Program-made: the position numbers and the translations under genes
In this document: positions 7,188 through 20,000 of the stretch, piece after piece
How the letters are laid out: every line of letters begins with the position of its first letter
Numbering within the stretch: position 1 is the stretch's first letter
Notes under the pieces: model-generated
What the model saw: the letters and a program-made list of their open reading frames with translations, nothing else
Told to the model about the DNA's origin: nothing
Databases searched by the model: none
Sequence record: SRR22947727_261
DNA: 20,000 bases
Direction: 5' to 3' (one strand)

Positions 7188-8180
7188 TTAATTAATAATA
7201 TTTGGTTCTATTTCAAGGGATATGTTGAAGGTTTTGTAAACTATCTCATTTATATGAGATGCGAAATTTAAGACCTCTTGTTGAGTTGCCTTTCCGTTAG
7301 TTGTCAAAACTAATGAATGATTTTTATAAATTGAAACATTTTTAGGTAACGATAATTGATGTTGTATTAGCTCAATTAACCTTGCAGCACCAACTTTAAC
7401 TAAAGTATCAGAGTAGTCCCAAATTATTAATTTATCTTCACTAAAATACTCAAAATTAATTTGGTTTTTATGAATAATAGGATTTTTAAAAAAACTTCCA
7501 GCATTAAAAACATGATCTGGATTAGGTAAAGCTTTTGCTCTGACTTTAGATATTATCCTTGAAATATCTTGTTTATTTAAATTATCTGTATTGAAAGAAT
7601 TGTCATGCATGTATTTTTGTATGGATGCATAGTCAGGATTGATATTTTCTTTAAGATTAGATTTAAAGTTGAGGTTATAAATAAGATAATGTGAGTTTTT
7701 TAGAATAGAGTCTCTGTATGAAAATTTGCAATCTTTGTTATTAAGATTGATTTCCTTAAATGTTTTCAAACAAAAACAATCTATGCTCTCTATCAAACTT
7801 GAAACATCAGCACCATAAGCACCAATATTTTGAACAGGACTTGCACCAACGCTCCCTGGGATATCAATTAGGTTTTCAAAACCATTGATATCATTTTTGA
7901 TACAGAATTTAACTAGCTCTGTCCAATTGTATGCTGAGCCTACATTTAAGATGTTTTTATTAAGATTGATATGGTTAAAATCTGCTTTTAAAACTAGACC
8001 ATCATAAAAGGATGGAGGAACTATATTGGTGCCCTCTCCGTGAATAAAATATTTTTTATTAGATTTAATTAAATCGTGAATTTTATTTAGGTCTTCGATA
8101 TTTTGTAATTTTACTAAAAGCTTACACCTTGATTGAATACCAAGAGAGTTATCAATCAATGCATTTTCTTCAATTTTCAT
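7188..8180 (-). CDS. murB: UDP-N-acetylenolpyruvoylglucosamine reductase
   Basis: 330 aa: GEGTN (GxGSN-like), IPGSVGASPVQNIGAYG, FSYRDS, NAGSFFKNP (catalytic Ser), terminal LEIEP. Confidence 0.95.
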   Translation of the reverse strand: MKIEENALIDNSLGIQSRCKLLVKLQNIEDLNKIHDLIKSNKKYFIHGEGTNIVPPSFYDGLVLKADFNHINLNKNILNVGSAYNWTELVKFCIKNDINGFENLIDIPGSVGASPVQNIGAYGADVSSLIESIDCFCLKTFKEINLNNKDCKFSYRDSILKNSHYLIYNLNFKSNLKENINPDYASIQKYMHDNSFNTDNLNKQDISRIISKVRAKALPNPDHVFNAGSFFKNPIIHKNQINFEYFSEDKLIIWDYSDTLVKVGAARLIELIQHQLSLPKNVSIYKNHSLVLTTNGKATQQEVLNFASHINEIVYKTFNISLEIEPNIIN

Positions 8181-8892
8181 TAGTCAGCAAATAATTAATA
8201 GCTTGATCAACATCTTCTTGGGTATCGATGCCAGAGGGAATTTCATTTTTATAATGGGTCATATAAATTGAATAATTATTGTCCATAAATCTTAGCTGTT
8301 CTAGTTTATGAAATAATTCGTTTTTTGTTGGTTTTAGATTTACCAATTTTCTTAAAGTTTTCATTCTATATCCATAAATTCCTATGTGTCTCATAGATAA
8401 TTCATTGCTATTTAATGTTCTTTGAAAAGATTTTGCATAATTGTTTGAGTCACAATGAACTTTAACGCAATTAGAGTTTTTTAAGTCATCTGAGTTATTT
8501 ATTGGATGACAGGCACTTATAACATCACATGAGTTATTGTTAAAATCTTCTACAAGCTGAATCACTAAATCCTTGGGCATGAAAGGCTCATCACCTTGTA
8601 AATTTATTATAAGAGTATCATTGTTTATTTTAAGATTTTCAGCAGCTTCAAATACCCTATCAGTTCCTGATATATGTGCATCACTGGTCATAACAATATT
8701 TGTTGAAAAGGATTGGACATGTTCTAAAACTTCCTGAGAATCAGTTGCGATGTAAGTATTCTCTGTGATTGTTATTGAATTTTTAAAAACTCTTTCAATT
8801 AGGGACATGCCCTTAATATCTATTAGTGGTTTATTCTTTAATCTTGTCGAACCAATTCTTGCTGGAATAAGAATTGCAAAATTACTATTCAT
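8170..8892 (-). CDS. kdsB: 3-deoxy-manno-octulosonate cytidylyltransferase (CMP-Kdo synthetase)
   Basis: 240 aa: IPARIGSTRLKNKPL, SGTDR, INLQGDEP, RHIGIYGY, LEQLR, GIDT. Confidence 0.96.
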   Translation of the reverse strand: MNSNFAILIPARIGSTRLKNKPLIDIKGMSLIERVFKNSITITENTYIATDSQEVLEHVQSFSTNIVMTSDAHISGTDRVFEAAENLKINNDTLIINLQGDEPFMPKDLVIQLVEDFNNNSCDVISACHPINNSDDLKNSNCVKVHCDSNNYAKSFQRTLNSNELSMRHIGIYGYRMKTLRKLVNLKPTKNELFHKLEQLRFMDNNYSIYMTHYKNEIPSGIDTQEDVDQAINYLLTNEN

Positions 8893-11652
8893 TTAATTTA
8901 AAGATTTTAATTTTGTATCCAGCTCTTCAATAAACCTATCAGATACATCAGCTTCAATAGTTAAATACCAAATTTTATTATTGTCGAATTGTCTACATTT
9001 AGATGCATCCTTCTCAGTCATTATTATAGGTAAATGATCTAGATAAAATATATCTGATTCATCAAAATTATGGTGATCTGGAAAAGGATGTCTAATAATC
9101 TCAAATCCAAGTCTGGCTAGAAGATCAAAAAATCTACCAGGATTACCAAGACCAGCTACTGCATGAACCTGTTTGTGCATAGGCCATTTTTTTATAGGGT
9201 ATGATTTACCAGATTTTAAATGAACAAACTTAGCAGGGCTAACATTCATTAAATATTCATTTTCTTGAGTTGGACCTGAATTATTAACAATAAAATCAAC
9301 ACTATTTAGTCTTGTTTTCGTTTCCCTTAATGGGCCTGCTGGAAATGTTAAGTTATTTCCAAAGCGTCTCTTACCATCTATAACAACAATTTCAATGTCT
9401 CTATTCATATTATAATGTTGTAAACCATCATCTGATATGATCACATCACAATCGTGATTTTCTTCTAATGTTTTCACTGCTCTTACTCTATTTTTGTCTA
9501 TGTAAAATGGTAGGTTCAATTTAGATAATATTTGAGCCTCATCACCAGTTTGCCTAACAGGCGTGTCAGATGTTACATGAAGAGTTTCTCTAAACTTACC
9601 ACCATAGCCTCTGCTAACTAACCCAGGCTTATAGCCCTTCTTAGCGAGCTCAGAAGCAATATATGCAACTAATGGTGTCTTACCTGTGCCACCAATCGTT
9701 AAGTTACCAACAACGATTAGGGGTATTGAGGTTTTATGACTGGATTTTTTTGATTTAAGAAACTTTCTTCTTTTTCTGTTCGTTATGTAAGAAAATATTA
9801 AAGAGAAAGGCAAAAGTAAATATAACCATAAACTTTTTTTATACCAACTATCTACAACAAGACTTGAATTATATTCATCTTCAAACTCTGGTATATAAAG
9901 TTCTGTTGATTTAGAAATTTTTAATTTTTCTTTAGGTGAATCCTCAAATTTATTTTTATAGAGGGATTGATAAATGCCATCGTTATTTAATAATTCAGCA
10001 TGAGTACCCGTCTCAGAAATAACACCGTTATCAAGAACAACTATCCTTGATGCATTCTCAATAGTTGATAGTCTATGAGCTATAACAATAGTTGTTCTAT
10101 TTGTGATTAATTTCTCAAGAGCCTCTTGAACAATAAGTTCCGATTCAGTATCTAAAGAAGATGTGGCTTCATCTAGTATGATGATTGGTGAGTCTTTATA
10201 AAATGCTCTCGCAATAGCCAGCCTTTGTCTTTGACCTCCTGATAGAAGAACCCCATCATCACCAATTTCAGACTCAAAGCCCTCAGGAAGACTTTCAATA
10301 AATTCCGTGCAGCCTGCTTGATTTGCTGATTGTTTAAGCTTTTCAACATCTATTTCATCATTACCATAAGCAATATTTTTTGCAATTGTATCGTTAAATA
10401 GTGAAGGAGATTGGTTAACTATAGAAATAGAGGATCTAAGATGTTTCAAAGAATAGTCATTAACAGAAATACCATCTATCAAAATATCACCAGATGTGTG
10501 GTTGTAGAAGCGTGGTATTAAATTAGCAATAGTTGATTTACCAGAACCTGACTTACCAACTATTGCGATAGTTTCATTTTTAGCTATTGAAAAGGAAATA
10601 TTATTAATAATTAAACCGCCAGTATTATAAGAAAATGAAACATCCTTAAAATCAATATCACCAGAAATTGGTGCATCTAAGTCTCCAGAATTATTTTCAT
10701 TCTGTTGATCTAGCTGATCAAATATTTCATTAGCCGCAGCCAAACCTTTTTGAACAATGATATTTATATTAGATAGCTGCCTAATTGGTTTTGCCATCAA
10801 ACCTGCTGCAGTAAAAAATGCAACAAAAGTTTGAGCATCAAGTGTTATACCAAGCTGAGAACCTAATGCAAAATATGCCACTAGTGATAATGAAATTGAA
10901 ACAAGAATTTGTATTATTGGGGTTGCAAGATTTCCTGTAGCTTCTAGTTTTAAATTCTGATTTTTATTAGACGTATTGGCTTTAAAAAATCTGTTATTTT
11001 CATAATCTTCTGCATTAAAACTTTTTATTTCTACGTGACCGTCAACAGCCTCAGATGCAATATGAGTAACATCACCCATGGCTGTTTGGATTTTAGTAGC
11101 TAATTTTTTAAGTCTCTTGCCAGCCACATACACTATTAATGCTATTAGCGGTGCCGTTCCTACTAAAAGCAGAGTTAATTTAAAATTTAATATAGATAGG
11201 TATATAAATAAACCGACTAATAAAAAACCCTCTCTAACAAATGTTTTTACGGCATTAGAAGCTGCTCCAGAAACCTGAGTTGTGGTAAATGTTATTCTAT
11301 TTATTAGTTGACCTGATTGATTAGCGTCAAAATAGGATTTAGGAAGATCGTGAAGTTTTTGAAATAATTCAGCTCTTAAATCATGAACTATTCCAAAACC
11401 AACTCGCGACATAAAATAGTTCCCAATAAAAAAACCAAAACCTCTACCTATAGCAATGAATATTAAAGACATAGCTAGAAGCGTATTCAGGCTTTCATCA
11501 TTTGAATCTATGTAACTTATTATTCTTCTTATCCATTCAACTGCTGCAATATCAGCAGCTGCAAATGCAATAAAACCAAAAACGCTGATTAAAAATGACC
11601 ACCTATATCTATAGGTGTAGCCTAATATTCTTCTTAAACTACCTGATTTCAT
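8893..11652 (-). CDS. msbA-lpxK: Fused lipid A flippase MsbA (residues ~1-569) and tetraacyldisaccharide 4'-kinase LpxK (residues ~600-919)
   Basis: Single 919-aa ORF. N-terminal ABC TMD plus NBD (GKSGSGKST, LSGGQRQ, IIILDEATSSLD, IAHRLST). C-terminal LpxK motifs VVGNLTIGGTGKTP, SRGYGG, GDE, DDGLQH, PAGPLRE, GLGNP, FPDHH, MTEKDA. Joined by a ~30-aa charged linker. Confidence 0.93.
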   Translation of the reverse strand: MKSGSLRRILGYTYRYRWSFLISVFGFIAFAAADIAAVEWIRRIISYIDSNDESLNTLLAMSLIFIAIGRGFGFFIGNYFMSRVGFGIVHDLRAELFQKLHDLPKSYFDANQSGQLINRITFTTTQVSGAASNAVKTFVREGFLLVGLFIYLSILNFKLTLLLVGTAPLIALIVYVAGKRLKKLATKIQTAMGDVTHIASEAVDGHVEIKSFNAEDYENNRFFKANTSNKNQNLKLEATGNLATPIIQILVSISLSLVAYFALGSQLGITLDAQTFVAFFTAAGLMAKPIRQLSNINIIVQKGLAAANEIFDQLDQQNENNSGDLDAPISGDIDFKDVSFSYNTGGLIINNISFSIAKNETIAIVGKSGSGKSTIANLIPRFYNHTSGDILIDGISVNDYSLKHLRSSISIVNQSPSLFNDTIAKNIAYGNDEIDVEKLKQSANQAGCTEFIESLPEGFESEIGDDGVLLSGGQRQRLAIARAFYKDSPIIILDEATSSLDTESELIVQEALEKLITNRTTIVIAHRLSTIENASRIVVLDNGVISETGTHAELLNNDGIYQSLYKNKFEDSPKEKLKISKSTELYIPEFEDEYNSSLVVDSWYKKSLWLYLLLPFSLIFSYITNRKRRKFLKSKKSSHKTSIPLIVVGNLTIGGTGKTPLVAYIASELAKKGYKPGLVSRGYGGKFRETLHVTSDTPVRQTGDEAQILSKLNLPFYIDKNRVRAVKTLEENHDCDVIISDDGLQHYNMNRDIEIVVIDGKRRFGNNLTFPAGPLRETKTRLNSVDFIVNNSGPTQENEYLMNVSPAKFVHLKSGKSYPIKKWPMHKQVHAVAGLGNPGRFFDLLARLGFEIIRHPFPDHHNFDESDIFYLDHLPIIMTEKDASKCRQFDNNKIWYLTIEADVSDRFIEELDTKLKSLN

Positions 11653-12053
11653 TTTTCTATAGTTCTTATCTGAACCTCATTAAACCCATTTTTATTAAGA
11701 ATATCCATTATACCTACAATCCAGATATGAAGAGAGGCAGCTTCAGCACTTAAAATAATTGAATTATCAGAATTATTTAACTCAAAAATTGCTTGTTCTA
11801 TCTCCTTAACATCATTTATGTTGTAGATAACATCATTTATGTAAACACTTCCATCAGCTATTACAGATATTTCATACATAGATTCGACAATGTTATATTC
11901 AAAAGATTCAGTTTTGGGAAGATCCAAGGAAAGAAATTGAGAATCTCCCACCTTCGAAGTAACCACAAAAAATATAACTAATAAGAAAACAATATCTATC
12001 AAAGGAGTTATTTCTATTGAAAAAGAAGATTTTTGATTGTTTATAAACTTCAT
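11649..12053 (-). CDS. exbD: ExbD/TolR family biopolymer transport protein
   Basis: 134 aa with single TM segment IEITPLIDIVFLLVIFFVVT carrying the conserved Asp, followed by LDLP. Confidence 0.9.
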   Translation of the reverse strand: MKFINNQKSSFSIEITPLIDIVFLLVIFFVVTSKVGDSQFLSLDLPKTESFEYNIVESMYEISVIADGSVYINDVIYNINDVKEIEQAIFELNNSDNSIILSAEAASLHIWIVGIMDILNKNGFNEVQIRTIEK

Positions 12054-12649
12054 TTATTTATTACATCAATAAATCTAGATACTTCAATCTGAAGTGTAAT
12101 TAATAAAAAGGAAACTTTTTGCTCAAAGTATTTATGCAAAACTAAACCAGGTACCGCTATAAATAACCCAAAAGCTGTTGTAATTAAAGCTTGAGAAATA
12201 CCTGCAGCGAGAGCATCAGGATTAGCTCCTGTAACTTCACTAAGCCCTGTAAATGCTGTAATCATTCCTATTACTGTTCCAAGCAATCCAAGAAGTGGAC
12301 TTATTGTTGCAATTGTTCCTAGCATATTTAGATTACGTTCAAGAGAAAACTTAACTTCTATAGCTTTTTCCTCAATCTTAGATTCTAAATTTTCTCTAGG
12401 TAGGTCTTTATATTGAATACATGAAATTAATAAAAAACCAAGTGAGGATAATTCAGATATCTCATCTGCTTGTTTGTTATTTATTAATCCTTTGTTATAA
12501 AGATTTACAATTTGATTAGTTAAACCTTTAGGGGATACAAGCCTATTTTGAAGAAACCACACTCTCTCTATAGAAATAGTAATAATTAGAATACTGCAAG
12601 CTAATAATGGCCACATAAATGGTCCACCAGCTATTATAAATTCAGTCAT
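12050..12649 (-). CDS. MotA/TolQ/ExbB proton channel family protein
   Basis: 199 aa: GGPFMWPL...IER, LGTIATISPLLGLLGTVIGMI, GISQALITTAFGLFIAVP. Confidence 0.92.
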   Translation of the reverse strand: MTEFIIAGGPFMWPLLACSILIITISIERVWFLQNRLVSPKGLTNQIVNLYNKGLINNKQADEISELSSLGFLLISCIQYKDLPRENLESKIEEKAIEVKFSLERNLNMLGTIATISPLLGLLGTVIGMITAFTGLSEVTGANPDALAAGISQALITTAFGLFIAVPGLVLHKYFEQKVSFLLITLQIEVSRFIDVINK

Positions 12650-13315
12650 TTAGGCCTCTATTAATTTAAAGTCTTTTAAATAATAAATCTTATCAAAACT
12701 TTTTATAAAGGTATTATCATGAGTAGCTGTCACTAAAGCAATATTATTTCTTTTAGAAACATTCAATAATAAATTTTGAATAATTAAAGCATTCTCATCA
12801 TCTAAGTTGCCTGTTGGCTCATCCAGAAAAATAAAATCAGGACTGTTAATCAAAGCTCTTGCTATAGCGACTCTTTGCTTTTCACCGCCAGACAGCTTCC
12901 AAGGTAAATGATTTATTCTAGATGAAAGACCTACTTCTTCGATAATATCGTATGCATTCATGTGGTTATCATTATTTGCTAGTTGAGCAGGAATCATAAT
13001 ATTTTCAAGGACTGTAAGATCTTCTAATAAGTGATGAAATTGATAAACAAAACCAAAATTATTAAGGCGGATATTGCTTAGGGTTGCATTTGTATTATTT
13101 TCAATAGGATTATCATCGTAAATAATCTTGCCAGAAGAAGCTGAATCTAATGAAGCCATGATATGAAGAAGAGTAGATTTTCCAGCACCTGACTGTCCTG
13201 AAATTGCGACAAGTTCTCCTTTTTGTACAGATAGATTGATGTTATCTAAAACTTTAATGCTATTATTTTCAATAAAAAAAGTTTTTGAAACATTTATGCA
13301 GCTTATCTTATTCAT
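12650..13315 (-). CDS. lolD: Lipoprotein-releasing ABC transporter ATP-binding subunit
   Basis: 221 aa: GQSGAGKSTLLH, LolD motif GFVYQFHHLL, LSGGEKQRVAIARAL, DEPTGNLD. Adjacent to lolC/E. Confidence 0.93.
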   Translation of the reverse strand: MNKISCINVSKTFFIENNSIKVLDNINLSVQKGELVAISGQSGAGKSTLLHIMASLDSASSGKIIYDDNPIENNTNATLSNIRLNNFGFVYQFHHLLEDLTVLENIMIPAQLANNDNHMNAYDIIEEVGLSSRINHLPWKLSGGEKQRVAIARALINSPDFIFLDEPTGNLDDENALIIQNLLLNVSKRNNIALVTATHDNTFIKSFDKIYYLKDFKLIEA

Positions 13316-14531
13316 GTCTAAGAATTTCTATTGGATTTAGCTTTGTTACTCGCAGTGCAGGAAATAAAGATGCTAATAAACTAAAAATAAGTGATATCAA
13401 GCATATAAAACCAATCTGCTCGTAATCAATATAATACGGAAAATAATTTATGAAGTACGCTTCTAATAAGTTTCTTCCCATCACCCCTTCCAAGAAAGTA
13501 ATAAAATTATTTATGTTGAAAGTAACTATTAAACCCAGCAATAAACCCATCAACAATCCAATAAAACTAACCATTAAGCCTTGAAAGAAAAAAATCATTA
13601 CAAGCTGTTGGTTGTTAGCGCCAATAGTTTTTAATATACCGACTTCTCTTTCTTTGGATTTAACAGTCATAACTATTGTTGATAAAACAAGTATCGAAGC
13701 TACTGCTACTATTAAAAATAACATTAAGCTGATTAATAATTTCTCAAATTGAATCGCCTCAAACAAAGTTCCATGTGTCTCTTTCCATGATGACGACATC
13801 AAACTAGTATTGTCTGGTATTGCCAAATAAGCTATTTGGTCCGCAAGAAATAGATTAGATGTTTTTAGTCTAATTGATAGAGTCTCATCAGTTAGTGATT
13901 TAAATTTTTGAGCAAGTTCATGAGATATCAATACCAGAGACTGATCGATTTCAGCTCTAAGTTCAAAAATACCTACAACCTGTAAATTTATAGATCTTGG
14001 GTATGAGCCAATGATTGAACTTTTAATGTCTGAGGTTGTAATCGTAATTGAATCACCTACAAATATTCCAAGATAAGATGCAAGCCATGATCCTATTACA
14101 ATTGAATTATCTTTGCTTAAATCTTCTAAAGAACCATAAAGCATATAATCAGGAAGTATTGAAACTCTATCCTCATGATCTACATCAATACCATTAACAG
14201 AAACTCCCTTGCTTATGGAGTTAGAGGTAATTAATGCTTGAAAAGAAATATAAGGGACAGCTTCCTCAACTCCATCAGCTAATTTTAATTGATCAATAAG
14301 ACTCTCATAATCGTTAATTGGTTCATCTGAATAAATCACCGCATGAGGAACAACACCAAGAATCCTATCTTGAAGTTCTTTTTCAAAACCGTTCATAACT
14401 GACATCACTATGATTAGGCTAGAAACGCCTATAGTAAGACCAGTAATAGCTAAAAATGATGTAAAGGAAAATACTCCACCTTTATTAGATTTAAAATACT
14501 TAAACGCTAATCTAAGAGGAAGTTTGAACAC
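13308..14531 (-). CDS. Lipoprotein-releasing ABC transporter permease (LolC/E family; single copy here, possibly LolF-type)
   Basis: 407 aa, GTG start: LIIVMSVMNGFEKEL..RILGVVPH, KEREVGILKTIGA, FPALR..KLNPIEILRHE. Confidence 0.93.
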   Translation of the reverse strand: MFKLPLRLAFKYFKSNKGGVFSFTSFLAITGLTIGVSSLIIVMSVMNGFEKELQDRILGVVPHAVIYSDEPINDYESLIDQLKLADGVEEAVPYISFQALITSNSISKGVSVNGIDVDHEDRVSILPDYMLYGSLEDLSKDNSIVIGSWLASYLGIFVGDSITITTSDIKSSIIGSYPRSINLQVVGIFELRAEIDQSLVLISHELAQKFKSLTDETLSIRLKTSNLFLADQIAYLAIPDNTSLMSSSWKETHGTLFEAIQFEKLLISLMLFLIVAVASILVLSTIVMTVKSKEREVGILKTIGANNQQLVMIFFFQGLMVSFIGLLMGLLLGLIVTFNINNFITFLEGVMGRNLLEAYFINYFPYYIDYEQIGFICLISLIFSLLASLFPALRVTKLNPIEILRHE

Positions 14532-15977: not shown

Positions 15978-16850
15978 CTAGTTTCTATCTGCTTTATCTT
16001 TGTTATTAGAAGACCTTATCATAGCTCTCATCTGTTCCCAATCTTCTTCACTTAAATTATCAAGTTTAGAAAAGGTTCCACCCCCAGTTAAATATTGTGC
16101 GCCGTCAATAGCTATGGTCTGACCTGTGAGGTAATCACAACCATCAGCCATCAAAAAAGTTGCTAGATTTTGCAATTCAGACATTTCACCAACTCTACCC
16201 AAAGGTATATCAGCCATATATCCAGAATCATTATCACCACCTGGATTAAGCCTCTCCCATGCTCCTTTTGTTGGAAATGGTCCAGGAGCTATAGCATTAA
16301 CCTTAATTCCATATTTGCCCCACTCAGCAGCTAAGGATTTAGTCATTGTATTTAATCCTGACTTAGACATTGCCGATGGAACCACATAAGGTGAGCCGGT
16401 CCATACCCATGTAGCTAAGATAGATATTATTGAGCCTTTATGACCTCTTTCAATCCATCTTTTTCCTACAGAATGAGTCATATAAAAAGTTCCATGAAAA
16501 ACAATATTCGCAATTGCATCAAAACCTTTTGCTGATAAATCTTTTGTAGGAGAAATAAAATTACCGGCTGCGTTATTTACTAAACCATCAAGAGGAGTCT
16601 TTTGAAAAATTCTATCAATATAATCATCAACATCTTGTGCAGCTCTGATATCTAATGTTTCATATGACACTGATGTACCATATTTATCTATAATCTCATT
16701 AGCAGTTTCTTTAAGAACAGTCTCACGTCTTCCGCATATAAATATATTTGCTCCATGTTTTGCATAGTGAGAGGCCATCTCTTTACCAAGTCCTGTTCCT
16801 CCACCTGTGACTAATATATTTTTATCTTTTAATAAATTATCTTTAAACAT
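15978..16850 (-). CDS. SDR family oxidoreductase, 2,4-dienoyl-CoA reductase (DECR)-like
   Basis: Start revised to ATG 16850 (MFKDNLLKDKNILVTGGGTGLG), 290 aa, 8-nt overlap with the hemH stop. Has CGRR (NADPH-type), NNAAGNFISP and VVPSAMSK..SLAAEWGKYG..NAIAPGP, and lacks the classical YxxxK. Confidence 0.85.
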   Translation of the reverse strand: MFKDNLLKDKNILVTGGGTGLGKEMASHYAKHGANIFICGRRETVLKETANEIIDKYGTSVSYETLDIRAAQDVDDYIDRIFQKTPLDGLVNNAAGNFISPTKDLSAKGFDAIANIVFHGTFYMTHSVGKRWIERGHKGSIISILATWVWTGSPYVVPSAMSKSGLNTMTKSLAAEWGKYGIKVNAIAPGPFPTKGAWERLNPGGDNDSGYMADIPLGRVGEMSELQNLATFLMADGCDYLTGQTIAIDGAQYLTGGGTFSKLDNLSEEDWEQMRAMIRSSNNKDKADRN

Positions 16851-17859
16851 CTTCTTTATCCAATTTTGTAATATTGATAATAGAATCAACCCATTCATCC
16901 GAATAATTAAGAGAAGGAACGTAATCAAGAGTTTCTCCACCGGCTTCAACGAATAGCTCTTGGTACTCATCTCCAATTTCTATAATTGTTTCAAGGCAGT
17001 CAGCTGTAAATGCAGGTGAAAAAACTAAAACTTTTTTATGATTTTGAGTTGGTAATTTTTCTAAAACATCATCAGTAAAAGGATCCAACCATTTGTTTGT
17101 TAATCTAGATTGAAAAGATACTATATATTGAGAACTATCTAAATTTAATCTATCTGCTATAAGCTTAGTGGTCTCATATACAGTAGCTTTATAGCAAAAT
17201 TTATTAGCCTCTGTTATTCCTAGCTCACAATCATTATCGCTACATAGTGAATCTGGATAAACATTATCAACATGGCTATTAGGTACGCCATGGTAGCTAA
17301 AAATAACTTTATCGTAAGAATGAACATCAAATTTAGCAGCCTTTGTTATCCAAGCATCAATAAAAGACTTATTGTCATAAAATTGATTGATAAAAGTAAT
17401 TTTTGGTACTACCCACTTATCAGCCAAACACCTTGATACTTCTTTATAAACAGACCCGGTTGTTGCAGCTGCGTAATGAGGAAATAATGGTAAGACAATT
17501 AATTCATCGGGATTTTGATCAAGCATACTATCAATAACTGATGAAATAGCCGGCGATTGATAACGCATTGCAAATTGCACATCAACATGGGGTAATTTTA
17601 CAGACAGAAGCTTAGTAAGTTCTTTCGTATTATGTAATAAAGGGGATCCGTAGTCTTTATGCCAAACTTTTTTATAGATTTTTGATGAACTAAAAGACCT
17701 AAACGGGCAGATAATAAAATTAACAAGAAAAAATCTTAATACAGGGTTTATATTTAAAACTTTCTCATCTGACAGAAATTCTCTTAGATATTTAAATACA
17801 TCAAAATATGATGGACTGTCAGGAGTACCAAGATTAATTATTAATAAACTTTTTTTCAT
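16843..17859 (-). CDS. hemH: Ferrochelatase
   Basis: 338 aa: NLGTP, YLREFLSD, GSPL, AMRY, LPLFPHYAAATTGS, FSYHGVP, FQSR, WLDPFT, PAFTADCLET..EI. Confidence 0.96.
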   Translation of the reverse strand: MKKSLLIINLGTPDSPSYFDVFKYLREFLSDEKVLNINPVLRFFLVNFIICPFRSFSSSKIYKKVWHKDYGSPLLHNTKELTKLLSVKLPHVDVQFAMRYQSPAISSVIDSMLDQNPDELIVLPLFPHYAAATTGSVYKEVSRCLADKWVVPKITFINQFYDNKSFIDAWITKAAKFDVHSYDKVIFSYHGVPNSHVDNVYPDSLCSDNDCELGITEANKFCYKATVYETTKLIADRLNLDSSQYIVSFQSRLTNKWLDPFTDDVLEKLPTQNHKKVLVFSPAFTADCLETIIEIGDEYQELFVEAGGETLDYVPSLNYSDEWVDSIINITKLDKEDV

Positions 17860-19046
17860 ATTGTAGATTCTTTCCTAAAAATAGGATGACTTATTATAAA
17901 TATAAAACAGATTAGGCACAGCATAGATGAGAAATAATATAAATATGATGGATTGATTGCATAGATAGGCATAGCTATTAATGGAGTTAATATATGTCCT
18001 ATCGGGTATACAGACCCCAAATATCCTGCTGCAGAGCCTTGGTGTTCAGGGGTTTGCGATAATGATAACGAAGATGAAATAGCTGGTCTTAACATACCAC
18101 CACCGAAACCATTTATTATTATTGATAGGTAATATATTGAAATTTTTGGAAATAAAGCCATGGTTAGGTATGAAAATAATAGTAAAAAAATACCGAATAT
18201 CAATAGTTTATTATTAGATAGAGGAAATGAATCTGTAAAGAGATATTGACTGACTATAGTAGAAATAGATAAAAGAGCAAAAGTCATGCTTATAATAATT
18301 GGTAAATCATCAACATCCGGAAATACATCAAATAGATAAAACCCTATTGTTTGAATCAATGAAGCAAGGCATAAACTAGAAATTGATGCTAACAACAAAA
18401 ATGGCCAAACAGTATTTGATTTCCAAGAAATTTTTTTTGTACTTTCACCTACATCCCTATCTTTAGATGTATTTTCAACATTTCTATAAATACCAACAGA
18501 AGATATTAGAGCTAGGATACTAAATACATAAAATGGGGTCTCTTTAGTAATTAGTATTAAAAATCCTCCAATCAGTGGTCCCGCAACTGTTCCAACAAGA
18601 AAACTCGACTCTAATCTAGCAAATTTTACAGTTCTTCTGTCTCTTGTTGATGTATCTGCTACATAAGCAAATGCTGCAGGTCTGGTTGCTGAACCTATCA
18701 AACCATTTAGCATTCTTCCAAATACCAATAACGGAAATAAAAAAACAATATCAAGTAGGTTTTTTTCAACTAAAAATAATGGGGTAATCATTGTTATAAG
18801 TGATGCTGAGTAGCCTACAAGACCAAGGACTGCGATATTACGCCTACCATATTTATCACTCGCTCTTCCCCATGCAGCACTTGTTAAAGCCCATGCTATT
18901 GCTGAGAAAGCAAATACAAGTGAGGTTTGAACTTCTGTTAAGCCTAAATCTCTTGCTAGTGGAGGAACAATAACAAAAACAAATGATTGGCCTAGACCAA
19001 CAGTAAATAAGCCGAATTTAAGCCATGATGAACCAGATGACTTCAT
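17856..19046 (-). CDS. Major facilitator superfamily transporter (DHA1/TetA-like)
   Basis: 396 aa with about 12 hydrophobic segments, motif A WGRASDKYGRR, motif B GR..G, and antiporter motif C GTVAGPLIGG. Confidence 0.9.
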   Translation of the reverse strand: MKSSGSSWLKFGLFTVGLGQSFVFVIVPPLARDLGLTEVQTSLVFAFSAIAWALTSAAWGRASDKYGRRNIAVLGLVGYSASLITMITPLFLVEKNLLDIVFLFPLLVFGRMLNGLIGSATRPAAFAYVADTSTRDRRTVKFARLESSFLVGTVAGPLIGGFLILITKETPFYVFSILALISSVGIYRNVENTSKDRDVGESTKKISWKSNTVWPFLLLASISSLCLASLIQTIGFYLFDVFPDVDDLPIIISMTFALLSISTIVSQYLFTDSFPLSNNKLLIFGIFLLLFSYLTMALFPKISIYYLSIIINGFGGGMLRPAISSSLSLSQTPEHQGSAAGYLGSVYPIGHILTPLIAMPIYAINPSYLYYFSSMLCLICFIFIISHPIFRKESTI

Positions 19047-20000
19047 TAAGAAATTTTATTAATGCCTATTGAACTTCTAATTGAATCAATCATTTCCTTG
19101 GCTATAGGCCTTACTTTTTTTGCTCCATCGCTAAGAAGATCATTAATTAAATCTTTATCATTAAGTAACTCTTCGTATCTTTTTCTTACAGGTTCTATAT
19201 CCTTATTTACAATTTCAAACAGTTTATTTTTAGCATCTCCCCAGCCAATGCCATTTATATAATCATCCTTAAGTTCTTCAATCATTTGCTTTGAAGCAAA
19301 ATATTTATATAGAGCAAAAACTGTGCAATTTGAATGATCTTTTGGATCTCCTGGTTCTAGAGAGTTTGTAATAATCTTAGCAATAGATTTCTTTAGTTGT
19401 TTTTCACTAGACAATAAAGGAATAATATTTCCATAAGATTTAGACATTTTTTGACCATCTATTCCTGGAACAGTCTCTTTTGAGGACTGAATAATAGCTT
19501 CAGGAAGGATAAAAGTTTTTTTATACAAATGATTAAATCTTCCAGCAATATCCCTTGTCATTTCAATATGTTGAATTTGATCTGCTCCAACCGGAACATG
19601 GGTTGCATTAAACATTAATATGTCAGCAGCCATTAATACAGGATATGAAAATAGTCCCATTGTGATGCCTTTATCTTCATCATCTGTATTTAAACTTGTT
19701 GCTGACTTATATGCATGAGAGCGATTCATTAATCCTTTTGCAGTAACACAATTCAATATCCAACTAAGTTCTAGTATTTCAGGTATATCTGATTGTCTAT
19801 AGAAAAATGATTTATTTGGATTAAGACCTGATGCAAGCCAAGCCAGAGCTACATTTTTAACTGACTCTGAAACTTCTATGTTTTTAGAATTTTTTATAAT
19901 TGCGTGATAATCAGCTAAAAAATAAAAAGATTCATCGTAATTTTTTGCTAATTCAAGGGCTGGTTTAATGGCACCTAAATAATTTCCTATATGAGGAGTA
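19046..20000 (-). CDS. trpS: Tryptophan--tRNA ligase; 5' end outside the window
   Basis: Frame is open from the window edge: TPHIGNYLGAIKP (HIGH-type motif), ADYHA, YRQSDIPE, then YPVLMAADIL, VPVGADQIQH, KMSKSYGN. The ORF-track start at 19756 is an internal TTG. Confidence 0.97.
   Translation of the reverse strand, partial: TPHIGNYLGAIKPALELAKNYDESFYFLADYHAIIKNSKNIEVSESVKNVALAWLASGLNPNKSFFYRQSDIPEILELSWILNCVTAKGLMNRSHAYKSATSLNTDDEDKGITMGLFSYPVLMAADILMFNATHVPVGADQIQHIEMTRDIAGRFNHLYKKTFILPEAIIQSSKETVPGIDGQKMSKSYGNIIPLLSSEKQLKKSIAKIITNSLEPGDPKDHSNCTVFALYKYFASKQMIEELKDDYINGIGWGDAKNKLFEIVNKDIEPVRKRYEELLNDKDLINDLLSDGAKKVRPIAKEMIDSIRSSIGINKIS

Follow-up and report, generated by a model that had tools for sequence, protein, structure and literature searches.

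Does the gene on the minus strand at positions 8893-11652 of the window, the 20,000-nucleotide (nt) stretch of sequence record SRR22947727_261 analyzed here, encode the lipid A flippase MsbA and the lipid A 4'-kinase LpxK as a single protein, and if it does, what could joining them achieve? Both proteins and the adjacency of their genes are textbook knowledge. At this locus, a single open reading frame (ORF) of 919 amino acids (aa) starts with ATG and runs without an internal stop. Pfam searches placed ABC_membrane (PF00664) at residues 21-286, ABC_tran (PF00005) at 350-498 and LpxK (PF02606) at 611-915. The MsbA model TIGR02203 was covered in full over residues 7-570 with 622.8 bits (cut-off 602), although the stricter E. 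coli-type MsbA model NF008381 was not reached (518.8 bits vs 867), and the LpxK models TIGR00682 and PF02606 scored 239.8 bits (cut-off 91.95) and 321.9 bits (cut-off 27). With 919 aa and a frame that stays open across the junction, the protein does not have the length of a stand-alone MsbA (~580 aa). One chain comprises a complete MsbA and a complete LpxK, a genuine fusion, and the Pfam domains, TIGRFAM cut-offs and catalytic motifs bear out the earlier note on this DNA, which had described it as such.

The chain begins with the transmembrane half of MsbA (residues 1-320; 10693..11652, minus strand), a long helical bundle in the AlphaFold2 (AF2) model, followed by the nucleotide-binding domain (residues 321-569; 9946..10692). 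An acidic, proline-rich flexible linker of 28 aa (residues 570-597; 9862..9945), where the earlier note had placed a polar linker of ~30 aa at ~9945-9860, leads to the N-terminal membrane-binding helices and basic patch of LpxK (residues 598-633; 9754..9861) and then to its catalytic core (residues 634-919; 8893..9753). No ATG, GTG or TTG occurs in frame across codons 403-613, which confirms that LpxK lacks a start of its own; TTG614 lies within the first helices of LpxK, downstream of an invariant tryptophan, W603. A hidden start for lpxK was thus rejected, with none at this locus and none conserved among related loci, and a consensus scan for an internal promoter was uninformative (44 sites vs 56.8 expected by chance). 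The only LpxK match in the window's genome was the fused copy.

The junction itself is not an artifact of assembly. The linker is crossed continuously by contigs of two DNA runs, X2 (9788-10209) and X9 (9788-11102), and of one RNA-library run, X16 (9708-10009), the three runs coming from different studies; RNA-library contigs reveal neither the level of transcription nor a single transcript. Among the pieces listed for a fourth run, X14, none bridged the linker, and one X14 contig carried a 2-nt deletion at 10463, within msbA. These independent contigs together with the full-length open frame in 31 of 40 relatives rule out an assembly error.

Both halves retain the residues expected of working proteins. 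The MsbA half has the Walker A, Q-loop, signature, Walker B, D-loop and H-switch motifs in the layout of a half-transporter, with the transmembrane domain preceding the nucleotide-binding domain; K372, Q414, S471, E495, D501 and H526 align with E. coli K382, Q424, S482, E506, D512 and H537 and are invariant in all 46 fused rows of the alignment. R70, R140, K288 and R291 occupy the positions of E. coli R78, R148, R296 and K299, all basic, which we take to bind lipid A. The top PDB sequence match was MsbA of P. aeruginosa (9bd6/9bd7, E 4e-160), and 9bd6 was also the closest fold (TM-score 0.89 by target length, 45% identity). With its ABC motifs intact, the MsbA half looks active and is predicted to flip core-lipid A. 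Suppressor-like residues were sought and rejected: the position of the E. coli suppressor R310S is Lys or Arg in 31 fused MsbA rows, with no shift to Ser, and the alignment at P18 and P50 was poor.

The kinase part matched Aquifex LpxK (4ehw/4ehx, E 6e-25). The catalytic set of the Aquifex enzyme, K51, T52, R72, D99, E100, R119, D138, D139, H143, R171, H261 and K280 (PMC6286764), was mapped by motif to K658, T659, R681, D704, E705, R722, D741, D742, H746, R776, H860 and K881. Among the 46 fused rows, K658, E705, R722, D741, D742, R776, D859, H860 and K881 are invariant, and T659, R681, D704 and H746 are kept in 42-45. In the AF2 model, the N-terminus of LpxK forms helices at 598-604, in which W603 is invariant (46/46), and at 608-633, followed by a Lys/Arg-rich run; amphipathicity was judged by eye. 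The activity of Aquifex LpxK depends on its N-terminal helix (PMC6286764). The LpxK half likewise looks active and is predicted to be a 4'-kinase acting on tetraacyl-disaccharide-1-phosphate.

The fusion is not peculiar to one genome. The window's order comprises four families and 22 genera with small, AT-rich genomes from marine sources, and was identified as SAR86 through a member protein, P0121, which carries the label 'SAR86 cluster bacterium' and lies at zero branch length from locus L022; four families and 22 genera are also given for SAR86 in the literature (PMC11582366). Close relatives, which the earlier note had allowed might all have split genes, carry the fusion as a single full-length alignment in the 31 of 40 cases mentioned above (45-95% identity), including 16 of 16 relatives from the other three families of the order (45-51%). 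The nine without it have genomes of 56-84% completeness and no LpxK match whatever. LpxK is present in 212 of 266 order genomes; among the 150 LpxK matches listed (68 are unlisted), 142 sit in frames 889 aa long or longer, 6 extend as far as the end of a contig and 2 keep the junction joined despite frameshifts upstream in msbA, and no split msbA/lpxK copy was seen among them. Judged from these genomes, the fusion is fixed throughout SAR86. At two loci, L031 (G074) and L033 (G141), several frameshifts extend over msbA and its neighbours, most simply as sequencing or assembly errors, and the junction is joined.

Outside the order, one genome was sampled from each of 149 other families of Gammaproteobacteria, 144 of which have LpxK (7 matches are unlisted), and fusion was called by domain hidden Markov models (HMMs) only. 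Four of the 144 families proved to be fused among the matches listed (genomes G384, G316, G325 and G386), in agreement with the earlier suggestion that similar fusions might occur in other taxa; G304 (641-aa frame) and G405 count in the 149-family denominator only. In the family of G384 (f123, 12 genomes), seven genomes are fused, three split and two unchecked. All 14 genomes in the family of G316 (f55, Ca. Porisulfidus) have frames of 945-1153 aa, of which three were checked and found fused, and in its two sister families (26 genomes) the LpxK frames measure 321-574 aa and all eight checked loci are split. Other classes of the phylum contributed 113 genomes, 105 of them with LpxK, and none of the matches listed there was a fusion; 13 matches are unlisted. 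The HMM scans therefore extend the fusion from the whole order to further gammaproteobacterial lineages.

Protein collections gave a similar result: at least 18 checked matches among 50%-identity representatives are fusions, the LpxK part was matched by 1,815 of 8,000 proteins scored in the range 505-1,609 aa, with all three Pfam domains in 119 of the best 120, and the Atlas contains 9 clusters with the fusion architecture among 30 matches. Source databases label the fused proteins only MsbA or only LpxK, and pathway reconstructions can consequently score one gene wrongly as missing. A long open frame proved a misleading proxy for fusion in GC-rich genomes. The 968-aa frame with lpxK in G587 (L150, G587:C3) overlies a separate msbA in a different reading frame, three frames of 746-814 aa from other classes hold LpxK alone, and L072, which looked fused by its tblastn range, is split.

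To trace the origins of the fusion, we built a tree of 50 rows (chosen from 86) from the concatenated MsbA and LpxK domains, excluding the linker, by a quick search under LG+G4. The fused state needs five changes on this tree, at least three of them forced by well-supported branches; uneven composition and an unknown root mean that gains are not strictly separable from losses. Approximately unbiased (AU) tests rejected a single clade of all fused rows (p 4.1e-8) and a clade uniting the window's order with Ca. Porisulfidus (p 9.2e-8). The split row L072 falls among fused rows with low support. Several separate origins are thus suggested by the phylogeny, which rejects a single one.

What the lineages have in common is a minimum length of the joint and not its sequence. 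Spacing was taken as the distance between the last position of the MsbA model and the first of the LpxK model (domain HMMs). It ranges from 18 to 49 residues (median 28.5) in 44 fused rows and from 1.7 to 42.7 codons (median 10.7) in 39 adjacent split pairs, 32 of which fall below 18; the comparison excludes five pairs separated by ~370-390 codons and loci that have only lpxK. Ten lineage medians differ from the split pairs with p 5e-6, a value to be read with the caution that kin are not independent and that the groups were drawn from the tree. Two comparisons with split sisters agree: in f123, fused spacings are 33-46 against ~5 in split genomes, and in the Ca. Porisulfidus family they are 27-31 against 6-26 in its split sisters. 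Fusion was thus not the bare loss of a stop codon; either each fusion event brought additional sequence or only long-spaced pairs could be fused. The floor in length is likely needed for the first helix of LpxK to reach the bilayer from the end of the ATPase domain, given that the MsbA chain presumably ends on that domain, far from the bilayer.

Structure prediction and substitution patterns agree with a flexible joint. Two AF2 models, one of the full-length chain (46 rows) and one of the ATPase domain, linker and LpxK (30 rows), gave good predictions for both folded parts (mean predicted local distance difference test (pLDDT) scores of 81.8 and 81.4) and a pLDDT below 50 for the linker in both, over residues 569-594. 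The relative placement of MsbA and LpxK is not fixed in these monomer models (predicted template-modelling scores, 0.53 and 0.54), which cannot exclude an interface, and a complex prediction with two MsbA membrane halves and LpxK scored 0.00, which counts neither way. Across 16 loci of the same genus, non-synonymous differences per site amount to 0.42 for residues 571-584, 0.16 for 585-597 and 0.07-0.11 for the folded domains; synonymous sites are near saturation (0.67-0.75), and the non-synonymous fractions are therefore quoted alone, without a ratio of the two rates. The linker is free to vary in its first half and clearly constrained in its second, which holds a hydrophobic-proline motif kept within the family. 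Between fused lineages, linker sequences share nothing.

The fusion lies in a tightly packed gene run, lolC/E-lolD-exbB-exbD-msbA-lpxK-kdsB-murB-lysE-family-DUF1285. Upstream are the exbB-exbD pair (11649..12649, minus strand; PF01618, PF02472), of which exbD runs 4 nt into the fusion at its ATG, and lolC/E-like and lolD-like genes (12650..14531, minus), putatively named from their translations (ABC motifs) and from what we take to be LolCDE features. Downstream, kdsB (CMP-Kdo synthetase; 8170..8892, minus; PF02348), named on the basis of its family and of the gene order in E. coli (lpxK-ycaQ-ycaR-kdsB), abuts the fusion's stop codon with zero gap (8892/8893), and murB (7188..8180, minus; PF02873, PF01565) belongs to the same envelope gene run. 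No ycaR lies between the fusion and kdsB at the window locus; it is present before kdsB in E. coli and at the fused loci L035 and L036. The order exbB-exbD-msbA-lpxK-kdsB is found in other Gammaproteobacteria too. Elsewhere in the window, putative short-chain dehydrogenase and ferrochelatase-like ORFs (15978-17859) overlap by 134 nt, the dehydrogenase probably starting at a later ATG, and trpS (19046-20000) looks truncated but is intact, its start lying just outside the window.

The rest of the pathway is encoded separately. Also present in the window's genome (G000, 94.5% complete) are lpxC, lpxB and lptD, waaA as a gene of its own and two late acyltransferases, and stand-alone WaaA was found in 72 of 76 order genomes. 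At L043 (G000:C1:256557-260084), waaA and a late acyltransferase gene are divergent, with 47 nt between their start codons, and a P-II (glnK-like) gene follows. Heptosyltransferases (GT9) were found in 0 of 31 genomes of the window's family, none in the window's genome, and as one weak match in 12 genomes of family f4; an O-antigen ligase gave no match in the window's genome. The lipopolysaccharide (LPS) of this organism may thus be little more than Kdo-lipid A, and most of the order may make heptose-free, near-minimal LPS. All 12 genomes of family f2, which carry the fusion, have three heptosyltransferase copies, so the fusion is independent of a short pathway, and minimal LPS as its cause is ruled out. 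Full-length LapB, searched for with one query protein from E. coli, was absent from 38 of 38 order genomes, with five weak partial matches, and neither the LapB Zn-ribbon family nor the YejM/PbgA family was found in the window's genome. The E. coli-type circuit that controls LpxC seems to be missing from the order, as far as these gene searches indicate, and a fixed stoichiometry or direct feedback could then carry more weight in SAR86. As a general replacement for LapB, the fusion was rejected because the fused genomes G384 and G316 keep it in full length.

How, then, might the joined protein work? We favour a flexible functional tether, to which we assign a probability of about one half. The chain would dimerise through MsbA, so that each flippase would bear two kinases; this arrangement, put forward in the earlier note, follows from the known dimer of MsbA (PMC6286764). 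Starting where the ATPase domain ends, the linker would return to the membrane's inner face, into which the amphipathic helix of LpxK would insert. LpxK would phosphorylate tetraacyl-disaccharide-1-phosphate to lipid IVA and release it to the inner leaflet, free WaaA and two acyltransferases would complete it, and nearby MsbA would flip the product. The benefit would lie in a fixed 1:1 synthesis, in LpxK being brought to the membrane by the transporter, and in the co-location of the late lipid A steps at the exit, with MsbA and LpxK forming no fixed interface and lipid IVA not being handed from one to the other. Several points weigh against this tether. We infer the full-length protein, the two-kinase dimer, the geometry of reach and the benefit from sequence, and the argument from reach depends on presumed dimensions of MsbA. 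The floor in length could equally be a filter of tolerance, short joins being lethal, which implies no advantage, and the recurrence of the fusion could stem merely from the genes being neighbours. Close to LpxK, each fused lineage conserves a short hydrophobic linker motif of its own, a possible docking site missed by the models. In G386, an intact frame of 955 aa has a fused LpxK without Walker A, Walker B and other catalytic motifs (L040:1304-4171), and a separate intact lpxK stands elsewhere (L095:3649-4656); simple co-location of an active kinase leaves a dead fused copy beside a free intact one unaccounted for. As G386 is the sole genome of its family, function cannot be told apart from slow decay there.

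Adjacent, co-transcribed genes might instead have fused by chance, the join being tolerated wherever LpxK reaches the membrane and bringing no benefit, and the lost start of LpxK making it hard to undo. We regard this as possible but on the unlikely side. It is consistent with the neighbouring positions of msbA and lpxK in 39 of the class loci examined, with the split state of most families (just 4 of 144 outside the order are fused, among the matches listed), with the fast-evolving first half of the linker and with the low-support position of split L072, according to which reversal may occur. It accords less well with linkers that exceed the spacing of split sisters, so that each origin needed added sequence, and with the clear constraint on the second linker half. 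Streamlining by length does not account for the fusion either, which costs DNA relative to the 4-nt overlap of E. coli and persists in genomes as large as 4.6 Mb (G419). Alternatively, the conformation or load of MsbA could tune LpxK through the distal motif of the tether, feeding export back to synthesis. LpxK has been proposed as a regulatory node, the second control point of the pathway (PMC6286764, PMC12444477), and the lack of full-length LapB in all 38 order genomes searched, the failure to find its Zn-ribbon and YejM in the window's genome, the conserved lineage-specific linker motifs and the dead fused LpxK retained in G386 would all suit such feedback. However, those motifs are not common to the lineages, the linker is unstructured in both monomer models, the order-wide LapB search used one query protein, and LapB retention in fused G384 and G316 means that its loss is not a common cause; we consider the feedback improbable. 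The same low credence attaches to its fuller form, in which repeated fusion would be a Rosetta-stone sign of a physical and regulatory link between flippase and kinase, the state of MsbA gating LpxK. Under such gating, SAR86 would use the fusion in place of the LapB/YejM circuit, which was not found there; E. coli and its relatives may have a looser form of the link between their unfused proteins, and the dead LpxK would persist in G386 as a regulatory or structural remnant of it.

The earlier note had also raised the idea that the fusion couples or channels lipid A synthesis to export. Looser coupling, through stoichiometry, co-location and possibly feedback, can stand, but direct channelling fares poorly. 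After LpxK has produced lipid IVA, WaaA, LpxL and LpxM take over, and what MsbA flips is the completed core-lipid A (PMC12444477); in E. coli, lipid IVA is reported to serve MsbA poorly as a substrate (PMC8151780). In the window's genome, the steps between kinase and transporter are taken by a separate waaA and two late acyltransferases, and the action of these stand-alone enzymes between LpxK and MsbA makes direct channelling unlikely. A passage of lipid IVA from the tethered kinase into MsbA, with export after little further decoration, would suit the slow movement of lipid IVA by E. coli MsbA, which improves with more copies or suppressor changes (PMC8151780), and the minimal-looking LPS of the window's family. 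Yet kdsB abuts the fusion gene, WaaA stands alone in nearly all order genomes searched, family f2 combines the fusion with three heptosyltransferases, and fused MsbA shows no shift to Ser at R310, so that we hold this passage to be very improbable. Even less credible is a chain cut in its exposed linker or re-initiated internally to give MsbA and LpxK that work separately. The linker is indeed exposed, polar and disordered, and some in-frame ATG, GTG or TTG occurs at residues 566-612 in 13 of 30 related loci; these codons are scattered, mostly Leu/Val codons in the first helix of LpxK, and absent at the window locus, the families share no conserved cleavage-like motif, and the frame stays open throughout the order.

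The fusion is thus a real, lineage-defining and repeatedly evolved joining of known parts. That its most likely mechanism is a plain tether of textbook proteins limits its interest. MsbA and LpxK nevertheless carry out essential steps in building the outer membrane and are antibiotic targets, and the literature describes the control of LpxK as unknown (PMC12444477). A natural one-chain form, repeatedly reinvented and fixed in one of the ocean's most abundant bacterial orders, offers a ready construct to probe the coupling of synthesis and export, and a SAR86 isolate exists (PMC11582366). No published description of an MsbA-LpxK fusion was found in open-licence PMC and bioRxiv texts, a search with supplements outside its scope (that of the SAR86 paper could list it), and no solved chain with the joined form appeared in PDB sequence or fold searches.

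Among known systems, E. coli's ycaI-msbA-lpxK-ycaQ operon has the same gene order and activities (b0914, 582 aa; b0915, 328 aa), with ycaR-kdsB next, and its msbA and lpxK are co-transcribed (PMC10328246). E. coli makes two proteins from genes that overlap by 4 nt, whereas the fusion is one chain with ~27 extra residues and no separate start for LpxK. Compared with MsbA of P. aeruginosa (9bd6/9bd7), it adds a C-terminal extension of 350 residues; with Aquifex LpxK (4ehw/4ehx) it shares the helix and the catalytic residues, but its LpxK N-terminus is tied to an ABC exporter. The lpxC/fabZ fusion of Bacteroidetes, Chlorobi and Verrucomicrobia is likewise a lineage-wide joining of neighbouring envelope-lipid genes (PMC3087551); the relevant parts of the main text of that study list waaA-lpxK as a gene cluster only and do not mention msbA. 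Unlike MsbA-LpxK, which ties a kinase to a membrane transporter, lpxC/fabZ joins two soluble enzymes at a branch point.

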